Part shown: one piece after another, positions 15,197 to 63,783 of the stretch
How the letters are laid out: each line of letters begins with the position of its first letter
How positions within the stretch are numbered: the first letter of the stretch is position 1
From: Cyanobacteriota bacterium
GTDB lineage: Bacteria > Cyanobacteriota > Cyanobacteriia > Thermostichales > Thermostichaceae
Assembly: GCA_033764955.1 (NCBI GenBank)
Contig: JANRIL010000032.1
Span: 26,447 to 90,446, forward strand
Reading direction: 5' to 3'
DNA length: 64,000 nucleotides
Program-made: the position numbers and the translations under genes
The notes under the pieces: generated by a model
Seen by the model: only the letters and a program-made list of their open reading frames with translations
Told to the model about the DNA's origin: nothing
Databases searched by the model: none

Positions 15197-15670
15197 TTAT
15201 TCTTCATCTTTCTCACTAATCTGTTGCCAGGTCTGCCAGGTTGCTGCGGGTTGAAACCCTCGATAAGCCAAATAGTTCCAAATCTTAACCTTCGTTTTAG
15301 GATCCGCTTGATCTAAGCTTTCTAGGTGGTATTTCCTTAATATTTTCGCCTTTAAGTTCAAAATATTCTGAGAATTTTCTAGGTTTGACTCTAGAATTTG
15401 CTCTTCCCAAATTTGATCGAATAGACTAGCCTGGATCCCCTTACTTAGGCATTTAGTCTTGAGGCGTTGTTTTCCATATTGTCCTCGACTTTGCCGGATG
15501 AGACTGATGATATAACGAGTATCAGGTTCATATCCCTGCTGCTGCAATGCTTCCAATGCTTCTTGGATTTCTGTATCCGTAAAGTTATTTTGTTTAGCTT
15601 TTTGGATGAGTTCCCAGCGGGTGTAATCGCGGCGGCCCAAGCATGTTAGCCAATAATGTAGACAAGTCAT
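15197..15670 (-). CDS. recX: Regulatory protein RecX
   Basis: LGRRDYTRWEL, YGKQRLK..KGI and YLAYRGF motifs; 157 aa. Confidence 0.85.
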   Translation of the reverse strand: MTCLHYWLTCLGRRDYTRWELIQKAKQNNFTDTEIQEALEALQQQGYEPDTRYIISLIRQSRGQYGKQRLKTKCLSKGIQASLFDQIWEEQILESNLENSQNILNLKAKILRKYHLESLDQADPKTKVKIWNYLAYRGFQPAATWQTWQQISEKDEE

Positions 15671-17240
15671 GAGTCCTCTCGATGATCCTTTCCCTCAGTC
15701 TGCCGGACGACCTTTAGCAGCGGCTAGTGATCCGTCTCTGCCTCAAATACCTCAAGAGGCTTCCTCCTCTTGGCGGCTAGTGGGAGATGTCGTAGCCACA
15801 CTGGAAACCCAAGCCACCATCTGGTTAGAGCAGCTTTTGCTAGGGATCCCTTATGATCCGGTGCCAGGGCTGCAAGCGCAACAGGTTTTGGGATGGATCG
15901 AGCAGGTTTTACTGCCCAAACTGCAACAAACCCCCGATGAGATCCATTATCTGCTGCACGGCTTGGCGGGGGGATATGTGCCGAGTGGTGCCGCCGGAGC
16001 ACCGACCCGTGGGCGGGTGGATGTTTTACCAACGGGGCGTAATTTTTATGCCGTGGATATTCGCGGGATCCCGACTGAAACGGCTTGGCAGGTGGGCTAT
16101 CGAGCCGCCAATGCGGTTGTAGAACGCTACGTGCAAGCGGAGGGAGAATATCCACGCCGTTTGGGGTTATCAGTGTGGGGAACCTCGACCATGCGGACAG
16201 GCGGCGATGATTGGGCGGAAGCCCTGGCGCTCTTGGGGGTAAAGCCCGTTTGGGATGGCTCAGCGCGGCGGGTTTTGGATTTTGAGATCTTGTCCCTCGA
16301 TGTCTTGCAGCGGCCACGGGTGGATGTGACATTGCGAATTTCCGGATTCTTTCGGGATGCTTTTCCCAACTTGATTAGTTTGTTTGATCAGGCGGTGAAA
16401 GCTGTGGCCGATCTGCCGGAAAGTGAAGCGGATAATCCCTTGCGGGCAAGCGTTTTGCGAGATCAGGCTTACTGGCAAGTGCAAGGGATCCCGGCGGATC
16501 AAGCGGCAGCCAAAGCCAAGCTCCGCATTTTTGGATGCAAGCCAGGAGCCTACGGGGCTGGATTACAAGGATTGATTGAAGGGCAAAACTGGCTAAGCGA
16601 TCACGACCTGGCGAGAGCCTATCTCAACTGGAGTAGCTACGCTTATACCGGAGAAGCGCAAGGGCAAGCCGCCGCCGCGATGCTGGAGCGACAACTCAGT
16701 CAACTGCAAATTGTCCTCCACAACCAAGACAACCGCGAACATGATCTCCTCGACTCTGACGACTACTATCAGTTTCAGGGAGGGATGACGGCGGCAGTGC
16801 GTAGCTTGAGCGGTCGGGATCCCCAGATCTTTTTTGGGGATCATGCTCAGCCCCAACGCCCGCGTGTCAAGCTACTGCGCGAAGAAATCGACAAGGTTTA
16901 TCGTTCGCGGGTGATCAACCCCCAGTGGATTGCAGGAGTGATGCGGCATGGCTATAAAGGAGCTTTTGAAATGGCCGCCACCGTGGATTATTTGTTTGCC
17001 TATGATGCCACCACCCACTGCGTCGAAGATTTTATGTATGCGGGGGTAACGCAAGCCTATCTGCTGGATCCCCAAGTGCAAGCCTTTATGCAGCAACACA
17101 ATCCCTGGGCAGTACGGGATATCAGCGAGCGCCTTTTGGAAGCCCATCAGCGCGGGCTTTGGCAACACCCTGAACCTGCCCTTCTCGATCAACTACAAAC
17201 CATTTTGCTGGAGGCAGAGCTAGCGGTAGAACAGCATTAA
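15669..17240 (+). CDS. cobN: Cobaltochelatase CobN, C-terminal part only (split gene or fragment)
   Basis: GAPTRGRVDVLPTGRNFY, WGTSTMRTGGDD, RISGFFRDAFP, HNQDNREHDLLDSDDYYQF; only 523 aa, with an in-frame TAA at 15654. Confidence 0.85.
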   Translation: MSPLDDPFPQSAGRPLAAASDPSLPQIPQEASSSWRLVGDVVATLETQATIWLEQLLLGIPYDPVPGLQAQQVLGWIEQVLLPKLQQTPDEIHYLLHGLAGGYVPSGAAGAPTRGRVDVLPTGRNFYAVDIRGIPTETAWQVGYRAANAVVERYVQAEGEYPRRLGLSVWGTSTMRTGGDDWAEALALLGVKPVWDGSARRVLDFEILSLDVLQRPRVDVTLRISGFFRDAFPNLISLFDQAVKAVADLPESEADNPLRASVLRDQAYWQVQGIPADQAAAKAKLRIFGCKPGAYGAGLQGLIEGQNWLSDHDLARAYLNWSSYAYTGEAQGQAAAAMLERQLSQLQIVLHNQDNREHDLLDSDDYYQFQGGMTAAVRSLSGRDPQIFFGDHAQPQRPRVKLLREEIDKVYRSRVINPQWIAGVMRHGYKGAFEMAATVDYLFAYDATTHCVEDFMYAGVTQAYLLDPQVQAFMQQHNPWAVRDISERLLEAHQRGLWQHPEPALLDQLQTILLEAELAVEQH

Positions 17241-46440: not shown

Positions 46441-46686
46441 CTAAGCTTGACGACCTTGCCGCCGTCGATCCCCAATCCCACAATCTCCACAACATTCCGG
46501 ACGCTTAAAATCATCCCAGTGAAGGCAGGCTCGACATCCCTTGGTCATTTCTGGCCAACGTTCTTGAATGAGTAATTGTCGTAATTTAACGTCTTGGGAT
46601 TCCGAAAAATGAGATTGTGATTGTGACCGTTCCATAACCCAACTCTGAAGCTCTTCCTCCGGTATAAGAGGTTTTATTGACGGCAT
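46441..46686 (-). CDS. Possible small Cys-rich protein (81 aa)
   Basis: Internal ATG of the 162-aa ORF; CRAC...CCGDC motif. Confidence 0.3.
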   Translation of the reverse strand: MPSIKPLIPEEELQSWVMERSQSQSHFSESQDVKLRQLLIQERWPEMTKGCRACLHWDDFKRPECCGDCGIGDRRRQGRQA

Positions 46687-46951
46687 TCTCAAACATTGGT
46701 ATGGCTTAAGAATTGAATTAGGTAGAGCTAATGAAATAAGGAAATGACCTATAAAATTTTGCACAAACAATGCAACAGGATAACATCTATAAATAAATGC
46801 TAAGAAATAAGTCGCAATTGTTATCGTGATCTCAGGATCCCCTGATGGAAGATGAGTTAGGCGTGGGATGGGAAATAGGGATAGGGATCCAAACCCTACG
46901 AATGGATCCCTGTGGATCCACGTAGTCAATCTTACTTAATCAGGATCCCAA

Positions 46952-47115
46952 TGGATCTAATCGGAATCGAACCGATACCTGCCCTGTGAGAGTCTCACTC
47001 ACACCTCATGCAAGTTTACAAAGCGTCTCTGTTTCTTCCTAACAAGAAGGTATGTAAGCTTTGTGGATCTGGGCACGAGTTGGTTATGGGCGCTCTACCC
47101 TAGAGCTATAGACCC
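46952..47115 (-). ncRNA. tRNA-like RNA (164 nt) with a G3:U70 acceptor and a 103-nt structured insert replacing the anticodon loop
   Basis: Acceptor GGGUCUA/UAGAUCC-A, D arm GCUC/GAGC, T arm AUCGG-UUCGAUU-CCGAU; no anticodon loop. Confidence 0.8.
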
Positions 47116-47222
47116 CAAAAATGTCAATGGATAGGATGAATTGCTTTTTATCAATACAACGGTAAATGATTGAACCCATTGAACAAAACCTGAGTCAGTC
47201 TTAACCACTCACCGAAGTGGAG

Positions 47223-47296
47223 ATGCGAGGGCAGGGCTTGAACCTGCAAACTCCTGGTTCAGAGCCAGGTGACTTTACCAATTCGTCTACCTCGCA
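47223..47296 (-). tRNA. tRNA-Gln(CUG), atypical; CCA not encoded
   Basis: UGCGAGG/CCUCGCA acceptor; CCUGG-CU-CUG-AA-CCAGG anticodon arm; GCAGG-UUCAAGC-CCUGC T arm. Confidence 0.85.
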
Positions 47297-47332
47297 GCCA
47301 AGTGGGGGCTAGCAAACCCGTTTGTGATGGGA

Positions 47333-47406
47333 TCCTCTCGACGGGACTTCAACCCGCAATCTTTGCTTTGAAGGAGCAATGGCTTAGTCGTTTCGCCTAC
47401 GAGAGG
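47333..47406 (-). tRNA. Aberrant tRNA-Glu(UUC)-like gene or pseudo-tRNA
   Basis: CCUCUCG/CGAGAGG acceptor; UUGCU-CC-UUC-AA-AGCAA arm with C33; T loop UUGAAGU; D loop lacks GG. Confidence 0.65.
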
Positions 47407-47516
47407 AGGAGCATTCCCTTAACAAAATACATGAGCAGTTAGCAAAAAACGAATCAACTATTTTCTCATCCATCAAACCAACCCATCAAATAGCTAGGTT
47501 ATTTAGGGATCCATCA

Positions 47517-47714
47517 TCACAAAAATAAAGCATGTTGCATTAAATATTGATGGCGAATCTTTTCCATTTCTAGGATGGCTTGAGCATGAGCTTGTTTAGC
47601 CAGTTGAGCTTGTTGGAGTTGCTCGGCCTGCTCTTGCTGCTTTTCTCGTGCTTTCTGTAGAGTGACTTGGTAGAGAATCCACTCGGATAGAGAGATTGTT
47701 TTTTGGACGAGCAT
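47517..47714 (-). CDS. Small hypothetical helical protein (65 aa)
   Basis: MLVQKTISLSEW...; Gln/Ala-rich coiled-coil; co-oriented with the operon. Confidence 0.55.
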   Translation of the reverse strand: MLVQKTISLSEWILYQVTLQKAREKQQEQAEQLQQAQLAKQAHAQAILEMEKIRHQYLMQHALFL

Positions 47715-48044
47715 AATATTTCCCTGAAACTCACTTCCTATGCAAATACTACAAATGTAATATGCCATTGTCAAGCTCCCAAAATTAAAAAAGGTCATAG
47801 ATATCATGAATAATTTAGATGGTGCTTAGGTGATTCTAAAACCAAGTTAGTTGGCTGATTATCCATGCAAAAATCTGATCGATATGAGGATCGATCAAGC
47901 CAACTTATTCATGAAAAACTCTCGATCAATAGTGAATTTTTGACTCAAATAGGGATCCCTTTTCTTCGCCGTGGAATAGCTCCTAACCATTGGGCGGAGC
48001 GAAGGGATCCCTTAGGTAACAGACAAGGAAACGAATGGATTGGT

Positions 48045-48425
48045 CTAGTTGTCGGGGGAATGGGTCATCATGGCTGTAGATCCTTCTGACAGTTGCCATA
48101 ACTGAAGAAGTTGTGCTTCTACAAGATGATCCAGAGCATCACAGACAAAAACACCTTCGGATCCCTGGGCATTACTGGATATCCACATTCCCTCTAAGCT
48201 GACCTCCAGATAATCGGTGTCACAAATATCGAGATCAATTTGTTCGGCAAGAGTTTCCAGCCCAGGCAAATCCGCAGGTAGCAGGAAGGAAGCCGCACTA
48301 CTTTCTATGACGAAAGGTTGATCTAGGCAGGCTGACAGAGATTGACGGATTGCTAACCAATCCTGCAAAGACTCCGCCACAATTTCAAGATAAATTCCAG
48401 TTTCGGTGTAGATCAATTTCAACAT
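48045..48425 (-). CDS. Alr0857-family protein
   Basis: MLKLIYTETG...LE, ASFLLPADLP, EVSLEGMW, EGVFV motifs recognised from this cyanobacterial family. Confidence 0.75.
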   Translation of the reverse strand: MLKLIYTETGIYLEIVAESLQDWLAIRQSLSACLDQPFVIESSAASFLLPADLPGLETLAEQIDLDICDTDYLEVSLEGMWISSNAQGSEGVFVCDALDHLVEAQLLQLWQLSEGSTAMMTHSPDN

Positions 48426-48449
48426 AAATATATGATCCTTTCCTCACAC

Positions 48450-48968
48450 TTAAGGATGGTGATGATAATGGTCACGCCAAAACAATTCAGCAAAAGCAAC
48501 CGTGGGATGCATGGGAGCTTTGGGTTTGGTCAATAAGGGCATGGCAGCTTGTTCGGGGGTGCGGTTACCTTTGCGCTGGTTACAGGTTTCGCAAGCGGTA
48601 ACAAGGTTTTCCCAGGTATCTCTGCCCCCTTGCGAAAGTGGAATGACATGATCCAGAGTGAGGTGATGACCACAACCGCAGTATTGGCAGGTGTGGTGGT
48701 CTCGCCTAAACACGTCGCGGCGGTTGACCGCCGGAACCCTCCAGCCCCGTTCGCACCCTCTGGTCAGGAGGCGAATGTGTTCGGGAACCTCCAGCACCTG
48801 ATGGGCAGAACGGATCCGCCAGATCGGAACATTCATCAGTAGGAGGGGTTCGGCTTTGCCCGTCAGCAAAAGAACAATCGCCCGCTTGATGGGGATCCGG
48901 GTGATGGGCAAATAGTTTGGCGAAAAAACCACGATGGACGCTTGCAAAAAATGAGTGGCTACGGTCAT
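48450..48968 (-). CDS. HNH endonuclease (McrA-like)
   Basis: [11 protein letters not shown]...[13 protein letters not shown]...[25 protein letters not shown]. Confidence 0.93.
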
Positions 48969-48985
48969 GGTTCGCTCCTCAACGT

Positions 48986-49019
48986 AAAACCCCCGCTTCG
49001 TGGGTGTGAAGCGGGGGTT
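48986..49019 (-). terminator. Attenuator terminator between the leader ORF and the HNH gene
   Basis: AACCCCCGCTTC-N8-GAAGCGGGGGTT 12-bp stem ending in UUUU. Confidence 0.75.
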
Positions 49020-49040
49020 GAGAATAAACGGATTCTCTTC

Positions 49041-49292
49041 CTAGATGGGTACAGCTAGCCTGTACCTCCCGCTTTGTGTAAAGTATGGTTTGCCGCCATC
49101 GGGCTTGCCGAAGAAGTTGCTAGTCATAGACCACCCACGATGGGAAATGGGGGCTTGAATCGGGTAAGTCGTAGCCATGCCAGCAGCCGTTCTGGTTAGT
49201 GCCGCTATCTCCAATGCCAACATGCCTACACTCTCACTGCCGAGGCAGAGGGAGATAGGAGATGAAAGCAGGCGGAGAAGCAGAAGGCTCAT
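49041..49292 (-). CDS. Putative leader peptide (83 aa)
   Basis: GAGGAG RBS before the ATG; its 3' end carries a sequence complementary to the terminator's 5' arm. Confidence 0.55.
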   Translation of the reverse strand: MSLLLLRLLSSPISLCLGSESVGMLALEIAALTRTAAGMATTYPIQAPISHRGWSMTSNFFGKPDGGKPYFTQSGRYRLAVPI

Positions 49293-49334
49293 GACACTCT
49301 CCTCAAGAGGAGGATGATAAGGTTAATTGCGCTT

Positions 49335-49364
49335 ATACTACACTGGTATTACAGGGCTTGTCTA
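49335..49364 (-). promoter_or_regulatory. Putative sigma70 promoter with an overlapping repeat operator
   Basis: TAGACA-N18-TAGTAT; GTAATAC-CAGT-GTAGTAT repeat overlaps the -10. Confidence 0.5.
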
Positions 49365-49478
49365 GTCTTTTATCCAGAAATATCTAGAAAAATATCCAGA
49401 AATTTTTTTGCCTTTTTTCACGAGCCAATTGGTTCAGAGAAGATTGAGCCGGATTACGCTAAGTCACCTGAGGGGGCA

Positions 49479-50801
49479 TTAAGGCTGAAGGGGATCCCGG
49501 ATGGATAGCCAGTCTTGCCCCACTTTGATGGTGATATCCGAGTCAAGGGTTCCTGTAGACTCGACGATGGTTTGCCCTAGACCCAACAAAGACTGTACTT
49601 CTAAAGCTCCTTGTAAATCTCCTTGCTGAGCAATGATCTGGGTCTGCTCAAGCATTTGGTGGGCATCTTCGACAGCAAACACCGAGGTAAAGCCTTTGTT
49701 GCGTAGTTCCTGAGCCATCTTACGGGCTATCTCCGCTTGTCCGGTCGCGTTTTGAACGGCAATCCGCAGGCGATTCGGGGGGGTGGGCAACAGGTCTCCC
49801 TGGCTGGGTTGAGCGTCAAAATAGTTGACGGCAATTTGATAGACCCCCTCTGGGTCGGGGAGCCAATAACTGGTGGAGTATTCGTAGGGCTGGCTAAATC
49901 GCCCCGGCAGCAAGACCATATCTAGGCTATCTTGCCCGGAGGTAAGCATAAATTTGGCTAAAGAGAGCAGCTCTTCCCAGGTGAGGTTGGTGTCAAGATT
50001 ATCTCGCACCGCTTGAAGAATGACGGGCGCTTTTGCCCAGGTGGTTGGTTTGAGCAGTTCTAGGCTGAGGGCACGCATGAGTTGCTGTTGCCGTTGCACC
50101 CGCCCGATATCGCCGAGGGCATCTTGGCGGAACCGAACAAATTGGTGGGCTTGTTCCCCATTTAACCGCTGCAAGCCCGGTTCGAGATCAATATAGAGTT
50201 TTTGGGTGACATCGGTATATTTCATCCGCTCCGACACATAGACTTCTACACCCCCCACCGCATCGATTAGGGCGGCAATGCCTTGGGAGTTGAGGCGGAC
50301 GTAGCGATCAATTGGGATGTCTCCTAGCATCTGACTGACCACCCGTGCTGTTAGAGCCGGACCACCTAAGGCATGGGCAGCGTTAATTTTTTGGGTTCCA
50401 TAGCCGGGGATGGGCACACGGGTATCGCGGGGAATGGAAAGCAAAGCAATTTTGTTGGAGTCAGGATTAAATCGGACAAACAGCAAGGTATCACTCCGCA
50501 CAGGTAGGTTGGAGTGGCTGGTTTGTTGATCCTCTTCAGAATCAATGCCATCCACACCGAGCACCAAAATATTCAGGGAGTAGTCGAGGGAGGCTGCTCG
50601 TAGCTGATCATCCCGAAAAGCGCTCTTGTCTGCGGGGGAGAGGATCTGTGGCATGATCTGTTGAGGCAATAACACCGCCACTAAAGCGCCTGCTGTTCCG
50701 GCAAAAACCGCCGTAAAACCAAACAGCAACCACAATAGCCAATGCTCAAAAGCGAAAGAACGAGGGGATCCAGCGCGGCGAGGGTGAGGGAAGGATGACA
50801 T
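49479..50801 (-). CDS. LCP (LytR-CpsA-Psr) family protein with LytR C-terminal domain
   Basis: NILVLGVD, RSDT, SIPRDT, KINAA, RFRQD..GDIGRVQRQQ, VQNATG. Confidence 0.92.
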   Translation of the reverse strand: MSSFPHPRRAGSPRSFAFEHWLLWLLFGFTAVFAGTAGALVAVLLPQQIMPQILSPADKSAFRDDQLRAASLDYSLNILVLGVDGIDSEEDQQTSHSNLPVRSDTLLFVRFNPDSNKIALLSIPRDTRVPIPGYGTQKINAAHALGGPALTARVVSQMLGDIPIDRYVRLNSQGIAALIDAVGGVEVYVSERMKYTDVTQKLYIDLEPGLQRLNGEQAHQFVRFRQDALGDIGRVQRQQQLMRALSLELLKPTTWAKAPVILQAVRDNLDTNLTWEELLSLAKFMLTSGQDSLDMVLLPGRFSQPYEYSTSYWLPDPEGVYQIAVNYFDAQPSQGDLLPTPPNRLRIAVQNATGQAEIARKMAQELRNKGFTSVFAVEDAHQMLEQTQIIAQQGDLQGALEVQSLLGLGQTIVESTGTLDSDITIKVGQDWLSIRDPLQP

Positions 50802-63387: not shown

Positions 63388-63783
63388 GGGGCTGTAACGG
63401 TTTCGACGAGGTGGCGAACCAGGATTGATGATGCAGGTCGGGATTGAGCTTATCCCGTTATCAACAGGCTCAAAACAAGTACGTGCGAACAACGTCGTAC
63501 CCTTTGCTCGTAAAGCCGCCGTCTTGGCTGCCTAAGACTCAGATCCTAGTAGATTTTTGAGTTCGAGAATCCTCCGATGACTCCGTTAAATGGGAGGATT
63601 TAACCCCAACGGACGCTGCTCTAGGTCTTCTCCTCGGTCGAGACAGAGCCTAAGCCTAGACTGAGGAATCCTGCCACTGGGATCAATAGTGGACCTTGTT
63701 TCTAGGGTTTTAGAAACTAAACCTGTGAATGATTCAGTCCCCAATACCCATTTCGGACACGGGTTCGACTCCCGTCAGCTCCA
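63388..63783 (+). ncRNA. ssrA: tmRNA; tag ANNVVPFARKAAVLAA* at 63485..63535
   Basis: 5' GGGGCTGTAACGGTTTCGAC; 3' GGGTTCGACTCCCGTCAGCTCCA; cyanobacterial-type tag. Confidence 0.97.

Follow-up and report, generated by a model that had tools for sequence, protein, structure and literature searches.

A short cyanobacterial locus, probably reduced from an L-array module, with TrcR-type promoters, a candidate leader switch and an alanine-type shell RNA

Organisation of the locus

The DNA analysed, referred to here as the window, is a stretch of 64,000 nucleotides (nt) from a Cyanobacteriota bacterium (Thermostichaceae; assembly GCA_033764955.1, 3.8 Mb and 89% complete; contig JANRIL010000032.1, positions 26,447 to 90,446). 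The locus examined lies at 46952..49364 of the window on the minus strand and carries a gene for an HNH endonuclease, a gene of the alr0857 family and three RNA genes, two of them for transfer RNAs (tRNAs). Its closest known counterpart is in Anabaena PCC 7120, where a cryptic tRNA operon is repressed by TrcR and induced by translational stress. In order of transcription the locus holds promoter P1, an open reading frame (ORF) of 83 amino acids (aa), a hairpin, the HNH gene, the alr0857-family gene, a second hairpin, promoter P2, tRNA-Glu, tRNA-Gln and an RNA of 164 nt. The features, all on the minus strand, are as follows.

49364..49335, minus: promoter P1 (TAGACA-18-TAGTAT; promoter scan) with a TrcR-type operator, GTAATACCAGTGTAGTAT, at 49352..49335
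49292..49041, minus: leader ORF, 83 aa (ORF list), positional counterpart of asr0855
49073..48986, minus: attenuator, from A-box to terminator (alignment of leaders, folding)
48968..48450, minus: HNH endonuclease, 172 aa (PF01844, PF14279)
48425..48045, minus: alr0857-family protein, 126 aa (NF045647)
47898..47869, minus: terminator-like hairpin, then a T run, 3' of alr0857 (hairpin/promoter scan)
47807..47517, minus: 96-aa small ORF (ORF list); its 65-aa remainder from 47714 is 47714..47517
47774..47742, minus: promoter P2 (TTGACA-17-TAGTAT; promoter scan) with TGTAGTAT over the -10 box; promoter-like site 47774..47746
47407..47330, minus: tRNA-Glu(UUC) (Rfam tRNA, ARAGORN)
47296..47222, minus: tRNA-Gln(CUG) (Rfam tRNA)
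47115..46952, minus: 164-nt tRNA-Ala-derived shell RNA (ARAGORN intron mode only; conservation, covariation)

An earlier note on this DNA had placed an HNH protein, an Alr0857-like protein, a small ORF and three non-standard tRNA-like RNAs on one strand behind one promoter and an attenuator. The named elements were all found on the minus strand, both protein assignments were confirmed by family models, and the attenuator hairpin at 49019..48986 is present and kept in relatives. The single promoter did not stand. Two promoter-like sites were found, at 49364..49335 and 47774..47746, each with TGTAGTAT over the -10 box, and given two promoters, co-regulation of the genes is likely but their co-transcription doubtful. 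As for the small ORF, the 96-aa frame exists but contains P2, which leaves at most the 65-aa ORF from 47714. This remainder has no homologue except itself among 5.8 billion proteins and no tblastn match in 50 related loci, and it is probably leader sequence of P2 rather than a gene.

Relatives and the full array module

Members of the alr0857 family occur in 102 of 401 sampled cyanobacterial genomes and in 60 of 156 genera. The 30 best alr0857 loci were taken with 1.5-kb flanks. An HNH gene lies directly upstream of alr0857 in 29 of the 30, its product being 50-62% identical to the window HNH protein; TGTAGTAT stands ∼400–500 nt upstream of HNH in all 30; and beyond TGTAGTAT a divergent ORF of 110-113 aa of the ribbon-helix-helix (TrcR-like) type is found in 27. 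The synteny survey that the earlier note had proposed as a check shows linkage, with tRNA genes starting in the downstream flank, at most 1.5 kb away, in 12 of the 30 loci, usually past a tandem pair of TGTAGTAT. In a second set of 20 loci from more divergent alr0857 copies, two of which repeat earlier loci with wider flanks, eight have an HNH gene, one has it fragmented, and three have arrays of 7, 21 and 27 tRNAs.

Four long loci from three genomes (L246-L249) display the extended module: trcR, repeat sites, leader, HNH, alr0857, two further sites and 28-36 tRNA genes, with an RNA bearing the structured element described below as the clamp near the far end of the array, next to tRNA-Ala genes. 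Two of the four lack HNH and/or alr0857. Relatives carry one or two TGTAGTAT-type sites in the interval from alr0857 to the first tRNA, and the long arrays have Glu(ttc), Gln(ctg) and the clamp RNA in the relative order seen in the window.

In Anabaena the operon asr0855-alr0856(HNH)-alr0857, which adjoins trcR (all0854), is derepressed in a trcR mutant by 7-9 fold (PMC10272220), and an HNH gene is conserved upstream of the L-arrays and co-induced with them (PMC8421152). The window shares with the asr0855 operon the order small ORF, HNH, alr0857 and an operator almost the same as that footprinted before trcR; it differs in that trcR, adjoining there, is on another contig here, and in that tRNA genes directly follow. 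With the Anabaena/Nostoc PCC 7120 trn operon and the L-arrays (Santamaria-Gomez et al. 2021, PMC8421152) it shares the upstream HNH gene, the TGTAGTAT-type repeat over the -10 box and tRNAs that are unlike the housekeeping set and akin to the array tRNAs of other species. L-arrays hold 26-43 RNA genes, whereas the locus has three, one that lost universal tRNA features and one that is not a tRNA; it further differs in encoding no CCA, which is encoded in relatives, and in its apparently chromosomal site. Measured against the surveys by which arrays were defined (long and dense, ∼20 or more tRNA genes), the locus with its two tRNA genes and one tRNA-like RNA is no L-array; by its upstream HNH gene and its array-like rather than housekeeping-like tRNAs it resembles one. 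The idea of a minimal relative agrees with the full arrays in gene order, operator sites and tRNA kinship, and on these sequence comparisons a kinship of the locus with the Anabaena trn/TrcR system is well supported.

Promoters and TrcR

The P1 operator GTAATACCAGTGTAGTAT, read as its reverse complement, agrees at 17 of 18 bases with the trcR operator defined by footprinting, and the P2 site, TGTAGTAT, is identical to the site quoted for the trn promoter (PMC10272220). The -35 box and operator of P1 are also present in the leaders of relatives. Across the 3.8-Mb genome TGTAGTAT occurs at only 28 sites, both strands counted, and two of these lie on the -10 boxes here; by simple arithmetic, two sites on one strand within 1.6 kb are very unlikely to have arisen by chance. 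A TrcR homologue is encoded on contig C38 at 12532-12203 (tblastn, 60% identity over 110 aa), and the region around its gene (C38:12203-12590) has its own tandem TGTAGTAT pair in the promoter region. The genome thus holds both the repressor gene and the motif over the -10 box at P1 and P2, as would be expected of members of a TrcR regulon.

In Anabaena rtcB belongs to the TrcR regulon (PMC10272220). The RtcB RNA ligase gene of the present genome (contig C42, 114456-115804) has a TrcR-type site, ATACTACA, ∼250 nt upstream and may belong to the same regulon.

The leader ORF and the candidate terminator switch

The leader ORF has GAGGAG 7 nt upstream of its ATG and its product ends in ...SGRYRLAVPI; the 83-aa sequence has no family match in Pfam or NCBIfam. 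Leader ORFs of 71-119 aa are present in all ten leaders compared (nine relatives and the window), with sequences that are unconserved save at the end. Their stop codon (TAG, TAA or TGA) stands right past hairpin H1 in nine of the ten; the frame of the tenth ends earlier, which places the conservation at the level of RNA. The end of the leader is made up of the following elements, identified as parts of the attenuator.

49073..49065, minus: A-box, AGCGGGAGG
49066..49048, minus: hairpin H1
49043..49041, minus: leader stop codon
49037..49020, minus: hairpin H2
49019..48986, minus: terminator, AACCCCCGCTTC-loop-GAAGCGGGGGTTTT, G+C-rich with a U tract

The A-box is a near copy of the 3' strand of the terminator and is able to pair with its 5' strand. 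Over 18 aligned sequences 96.3% of the terminator cells are paired, and five of the seven pairs between A-box and terminator 5' strand hold in 17-18 of the 18. When the transcript is folded up to the terminator 5' strand, an antiterminator enclosing H1 and H2 is predicted (-27.7 kcal/mol), and the complete sequence is predicted to form the terminator (-40.1 kcal/mol). The parts of a leader-peptide attenuator, namely an ORF, a U-tract terminator and a competing antiterminator overlapped by the ORF, are therefore present at the level of sequence and folding. They suggest a translation-responsive switch, in which a ribosome that completes the ORF would mask the A-box, so that the terminator could form, and in which the antiterminator would stay when ribosomes are stalled or scarce. 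Alternatively, a ligand or protein at the three-way junction could be the sensor.

Leader-peptide attenuators of the trp/pyr and antibiotic-sensing kinds likewise have an upstream ORF, mutually exclusive antiterminator and terminator and a U tract. The window leader differs in having no evident run of regulatory codons, the proposed signal being the overall arrival of ribosomes at the end of the ORF, and its antiterminator, a three-way junction enclosing two hairpins, is unlike those of trp/pyr-type leaders. The available part of PMC10272220 contains no mention of a switch made up of leader ORF and terminator, and relative to the available parts of that paper and of PMC8421152 the conserved leader ORF, antiterminator and terminator before HNH are new.

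The HNH and Alr0857 proteins

The HNH protein matches PF01844 with 58.8 bits (cut-off 21.4) and PF14279 with 59.8 bits. Its HNH domain spans approximately residues 82-148, preceded by 80 N-terminal aa that are conserved and without a family match; C94, C97, C126, C129, D106, H107, N121 and N130 are invariant among 23 sequences. The gap between HNH and alr0857 is 24 nt. The alr0857-family protein matches NF045647 with 116 bits (cut-off 75) over model positions 1-120 of 121, and its AlphaFold2 model has a mean pLDDT (predicted local distance difference test) of 92.9. The fold has no clear solved relative, the best Foldseek hit against the PDB having an E value of 0.2 and the best in a VIA wide search a Z of 3.7.

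The constant position of Alr0857 after HNH suggests that it is a partner or inhibitor of the nuclease. A language-model feature search (Atlas) clusters Alr0857 near the WapI immunity family (16-17% of members, scores 0.89-0.90), a link which is taken as a lead only. PADLOC gave generic matches for HNH and none for Alr0857, the small ORF or the downstream 162-aa ORF. The HNH protein itself may act in homing or in maintenance of the array. A small nuclease gene travelling with a tRNA cluster has a precedent in phage T4. The T4 nuclease, SegB, is a GIY-YIG enzyme. Its gene lies by the tRNA gene region (cited in PMC8421152; PMC13096335); the window nuclease differs in being an HNH protein with a constant partner protein.

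The two tRNA genes

Both tRNA genes score above the Rfam tRNA gathering score of 29, tRNA-Glu(UUC) with 52.6 bits and tRNA-Gln(CUG) with 65.2 bits. tRNA-Glu(UUC) has C33 and G56 and lacks G18G19, whereas its array homologues keep U33, GG and C56. It is identical at 49 of 78 positions to an array tRNA-Glu and at 43 of 78 to the housekeeping tRNA-Glu of its own genome; it is either in decay or no longer decoding. tRNA-Gln(CUG) forms a canonical cloverleaf, identical at 67 of 77 positions to an array Gln(CUG) of another genome and at 42 of 75 to the housekeeping Gln(UUG) of its own, and is the sole Gln gene of the assembly with a CUG anticodon. The description of all three RNAs as non-standard therefore fits tRNA-Glu and the 164-nt RNA and fails for tRNA-Gln(CUG), and with two of the three non-canonical the claim that mostly such RNAs were retained is upheld.

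The 164-nt shell RNA

The third RNA is called by ARAGORN in intron mode alone, as a Glu(CUC) tRNA with a 94-nt intron. It has no match to the Rfam tRNA model RF00005 at E<=10 and does not qualify as a tRNA by that model. It is conserved in 15 of the 401 sampled genomes, being 74-77% identical over its full length in three of them (G080, G294 and G434) and ∼208 nt long in about ten genomes of one family (f7). In an alignment of 14 sequences 99.7% of the cells are paired and nine pairs show compensatory changes; the covariation score was reached by none of 500 shuffles, and sliding the partners cuts the pairing to at most 53%. The outer part is a tRNA-like shell with a 7-bp acceptor stem, a D arm and a T arm. 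The place of the anticodon arm is taken by a 3-bp stem, helix Pa, an internal loop, helix Pb, a tip and a separate hairpin, Pc. The inner elements are located as follows (alignment, covariation).

47079..47005, minus: clamp (helices Pa and Pb, invariant AAAGCUUACAUAC)
47002..46986, minus: hairpin Pc

The acceptor stem has G1-C72, G2-C71 and G3·U70, with A73, in all 14 sequences and in 37 of 37 further copies among the matches listed from a wide scan. The single acceptor change in the window is compensatory (G7-C66 to A7-U66), and in the arrays the shell RNA adjoins tRNA-Ala genes with the same acceptor 5' strand. Alanyl-tRNA synthetase recognises G3·U70 with discriminator A73. By this rule the presence of the alanine identity set indicates that the shell RNA should be chargeable; it probably accepts alanine but is unable to decode. 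The insert of the RNA is unique in this genome. Neither the whole RNA nor the clamp matches any Rfam family, group I intron or ribozyme, and the folding energy of the RNA taken by itself is not significant (z = -1.55). An alanine-identity shell around a widespread covarying handle absent from Rfam is likewise new relative to the available parts of the papers compared.

A transfer-messenger RNA (tmRNA) was considered and rejected, as ARAGORN and Rfam call a tmRNA only at 63388..63783 and the shell RNA has no tag-peptide frame. The ordinary tmRNA at that place (plus strand, 16 kb from the locus) encodes the tag peptide ANNVVPFARKAAVLAA. The tRNA-like domain of tmRNA resembles the shell RNA in its G3·U70 acceptor, its T arm, the large structured domain replacing the anticodon arm and the context of translation stress; tmRNA differs in its tag-peptide frame and series of pseudoknots. 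Nor is the shell RNA a YrlA RNA by the family model (RF02553), which has no match in the window at E<=10. YrlA and the bacterial Y RNAs (Chen et al. 2014, PMC4201824) have in common with the shell RNA a conserved stem joined to a tRNA-like domain, and sister cassettes of the window RNA match the YrlA model. The topology differs, since in the shell RNA the tRNA-like part is outer and the stem internal; moreover the scores are below the family threshold and no Ro60 gene was detected.

The clamp in other genomes

A pattern scan over one genome per species gave at least 150 loci, with ∼140 chance matches estimated across 596 Gb; about four-fifths of the 80 records listed are cyanobacteria. Among the 155 matches listed, 130 parse as cassettes of the form Pa-loop-Pb and only 37 of these are in an alanine shell. 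The clamp has two helices, outer and inner, with a conserved asymmetric internal loop between them. Across 89 unique copies, each of Pa positions 4-10 is paired in 87-89, with CG, UA, GC and AU exchanged. The cargo held by the clamp varies, and among the matches listed the following kinds were seen.

Short hairpin: n=7, all in shells, as in the window
tRNA-sized insert: n=111, 30 of them in shells
tRNA with a T-loop insert: n=5
Long insert: n=7

The tRNA cargos have in common the acceptor stem UACAUAC/GURUGAA. Thirteen cassette copies with an identical body, again among the matches listed, carry eight different anticodon loops and differ almost only in this 7-nt loop (the cassette loci are L083-L232, e.g. 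L084, L088, L095 and L116). Of the cargos called by ARAGORN, 27 of 91 among the matches listed read CUA, and in shells this amber-reading anticodon is the usual one. Cassettes with a permuted tRNA-like cargo give full-model Rfam YrlA matches of 35-42 bits (E 1e-7 to 1e-5; gathering score 69). One locus (L229:142-627) has three clamp cassettes in tandem, holding a permuted tRNA-like cargo (YrlA 42 bits), a 137-nt module and a tRNA-like module; within the 137-nt cargo a stretch of 27 nt is identical to 23S rRNA genes of E. coli.

The clamp insert also stands free between genes. The present genome has two such cassettes on contig C30 at ∼15480-15790, after a 66-aa ORF (locus L252, C30:15480-18682); the cargo of one has a CAA anticodon loop and is called by ARAGORN as a second tRNA-Leu(caa). 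They lie directly upstream of a gene for an AAA ATPase and one for a 481-aa protein with a helical N-terminal part and a von Willebrand factor A (vWA) domain. The vWA protein, of 477-481 aa, is ∼70% identical across cyanobacteria. It has no TROVE match in Pfam or NCBIfam, and phmmer and profile searches against the PDB gave nothing. As a candidate homologue of Ro60 it was rejected, with an hhalign probability of 1.3% and a BLASTP match to a cyanobacterial TROVE protein in the metal-ion-dependent adhesion site (MIDAS) region only, E 0.28; its single-sequence AlphaFold2 model has a pLDDT of 41.5. A search of the genome, which is 89% complete, detected no TROVE (Ro60) gene. Of the 15 genomes that have the shell RNA, 7 encode a TROVE protein, compared with 52 of all 401, and so do 3 of 5 genomes with long-cargo cassettes; given that the shell-bearing genomes are kin, the enrichment is only a hint.

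In a plasmid collection 12 records have a cassette or shell, none of them from PCC 7120, with no annotated feature under any match. The one match in viral contigs lies inside a protein-coding frame and was taken as chance. No description of the clamp or of a nested tRNA in arrays was found in the literature searched, outside which lie the supplements of PMC8421152 and PMC4201824 that may bear on it.

Two side observations concern the cassettes and arrays. Array or cassette tRNAs with a T-loop insertion of 20-30 nt occur at L058 (genome G080, contig C23), L110, L154, L164 and L196. An ORF of 22 codons (MKKINSFNIEPE.FDEFDDFCF) with a Shine-Dalgarno-like GGAGG follows a free cassette in several Nostoc genomes (L084, L088, L095, L101, L103 and L127).

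Interpretation

We consider it likely that the locus descends by reduction from the cyanobacterial L-array module and belongs to the TrcR translational-stress regulon, organised as two adjacent minus-strand units. The first unit would comprise P1 with its TrcR operator, the translated leader ORF overlapping the switch, HNH and Alr0857; the second, P2 with its TrcR site and the three RNA genes left of an array of ∼30. During normal growth TrcR, encoded elsewhere, would sit on both -10 boxes. When translation falters the repression would lift, ribosomes would miss the end of the leader ORF, and the A-box would pair with the terminator 5' strand and allow read-through into HNH-alr0857. The RNAs would be processed like tRNAs, and the shell RNA would then probably be alanylated and unable to decode.

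Several results weigh against this reading. The three RNA genes, compared with 28-36 in relatives, are far below the size that defines an L-array, and the near-universal features lost from tRNA-Glu fit decay as well as a new role. The trcR gene, adjacent in 27 of 30 relatives, is here not adjacent, and at P2 a single TGTAGTAT stands where the majority of relatives show two in tandem; regulation of a test promoter in Anabaena required two repeats (PMC8421152). A generic promoter scan found five sites, not above the 3.9 +/- 2.1 of shuffled sequences, so that what makes the promoters significant is the match to the operator and the fact that relatives conserve it. The window alr0857 is among the most divergent copies, with 115 bits against 130-175 in most others. 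Finally, covariation in the attenuator is weak, with two pairs in the terminator, one in the antiterminator and values often reached by shuffles; the helices are mostly invariant, which accounts for this, and the case for the switch draws on sequence conservation and folding energies.

A rival reading takes the locus for a functionless, decaying remnant, an L-array eroded by deletions on its way to loss. Such a remnant would explain the few RNA genes, the tRNA-Glu without U33, G18G19 and C56, the absence of encoded CCA, the departure of trcR, the divergent alr0857 and the orphan ORF in the P2 leader. It is nevertheless improbable, since the HNH and alr0857 frames are intact with all family-invariant residues kept, neither the two operators nor the leader ORF, A-box or terminator show damage, and no helix of the shell RNA has been lost, its invariant 13-mer being present and its single acceptor change compensatory. 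That the third RNA is instead an intron-bearing tRNA, spliced to a decoding Glu(CUC) by removal of 94 nt, is hardly credible. It is proposed by the intron-mode call of ARAGORN, and an RtcB ligase is encoded in the genome and is a regulon member in Anabaena (PMC10272220). The proposed anticodon loop UCUCAC is, however, the 3' strand of Pc, which has two compensatory pairs, and this speaks against a decoding splice product; no more than 3-4 pairs would form the anticodon stem, and the insert also occurs free-standing. The catalytic core of group I introns takes up ∼200 nt or more. A group I intron was accordingly rejected, there being no match to its models or to ribozymes and the insert being far smaller (94 nt by ARAGORN, ∼110 nt between the strands of the 3-bp stem). 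Judged from its sequence, the third RNA can be classed neither as a pseudogene nor as a tRNA with an intron.

For what the RNAs do, the earlier note had proposed decoys of anticodon nucleases or ribonucleoprotein partners of HNH and Alr0857, in an RNA-repair or anti-phage response. We think this unlikely. The identical cassette bodies with eight anticodon loops are what would be expected of bait under diversifying pressure, tRNA-Glu(UUC) has lost its elbow contacts but not its anticodon, in Anabaena VapC-type tRNases are induced and cleavage of array tRNAs occurs (PMC8421152), alr0857 is present in all 15 shell-bearing genomes, and the WapI immunity lead points the same way. But the window shell RNA has no anticodon loop, its clamp holding only a short hairpin, alr0857 is widespread in the same families anyway (e.g. 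in 38 of 45 genomes in f7), and PADLOC recognised no more than a generic HNH. A second proposal, which we find doubtful though somewhat less unlikely, makes the third RNA and the clamp family protein-bound handles of the Y-RNA/YrlA type: the clamp would bind a protein, and the cargo (tRNA, permuted tRNA, 23S fragment or alanine shell) would serve RNA quality control or repair as a bait or tether. The YrlA matches of the permuted-cargo cassettes, the strongly covarying clamp architecture, the AAA ATPase and vWA genes directly downstream of the two free cassettes, and the frequency of TROVE in shell-bearing genomes argue for it. They have to be set against the lack of a YrlA match for the window RNA, scores that are all below gathering, the lack of TROVE here and in 8 of the 15 shell-bearing genomes, the lack of detectable relation of the vWA protein to TROVE, and the fact that related genomes are not independent samples.

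The reduced L-array module can be extended, tentatively, to a wider possibility. The clamp may be the constant handle of an undescribed, cyanobacteria-wide set of modular RNAs that mimic RNAs of the translation machinery (tRNAs with fast-changing anticodon loops, a permuted tRNA-like RNA, a stretch of 23S rRNA). In the window the handle, set in an alanine-accepting shell, would give a stress-induced, chargeable, non-decoding RNA between tmRNA and Y RNA that might recruit a partner protein to damaged or stalled components, with the leader switch as a sensor of ribosome occupancy layered on TrcR.

Spare tRNA arrays help cyanobacteria to survive inhibitors of translation. A minimal version of such an array shows what selection keeps after near-total loss of the tRNAs, namely two TrcR-type promoters, a leader switch, the HNH/Alr0857 pair, one good tRNA and a non-decoding alanine-type RNA. 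The candidate ribosome-sensing attenuator before HNH offers a focus for experiments, as does Alr0857, a protein with a fold unlike solved structures that always travels with a nuclease. The widespread, structured RNA handle absent from Rfam, with cargos whose anticodon loops change fast, may bear on how cells cope with toxins that cut tRNA or rRNA.

Neighbouring features

The locus is apparently chromosomal and is flanked by LytR and tetratricopeptide repeat (TPR) genes, only the 3' end of the LytR-family gene lying upstream of P1. An ORF of 162 aa (window 46441-46929, minus strand), without a Pfam, NCBIfam or PADLOC match, begins 23 nt past the third RNA. The iterated palindrome of the genome is GGGATCCC, with 4915 copies compared with 109 of GCGATCGC, and many copies fall within window positions 46900-49500. 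GGATCC sites flank several of the RNA genes of the locus.

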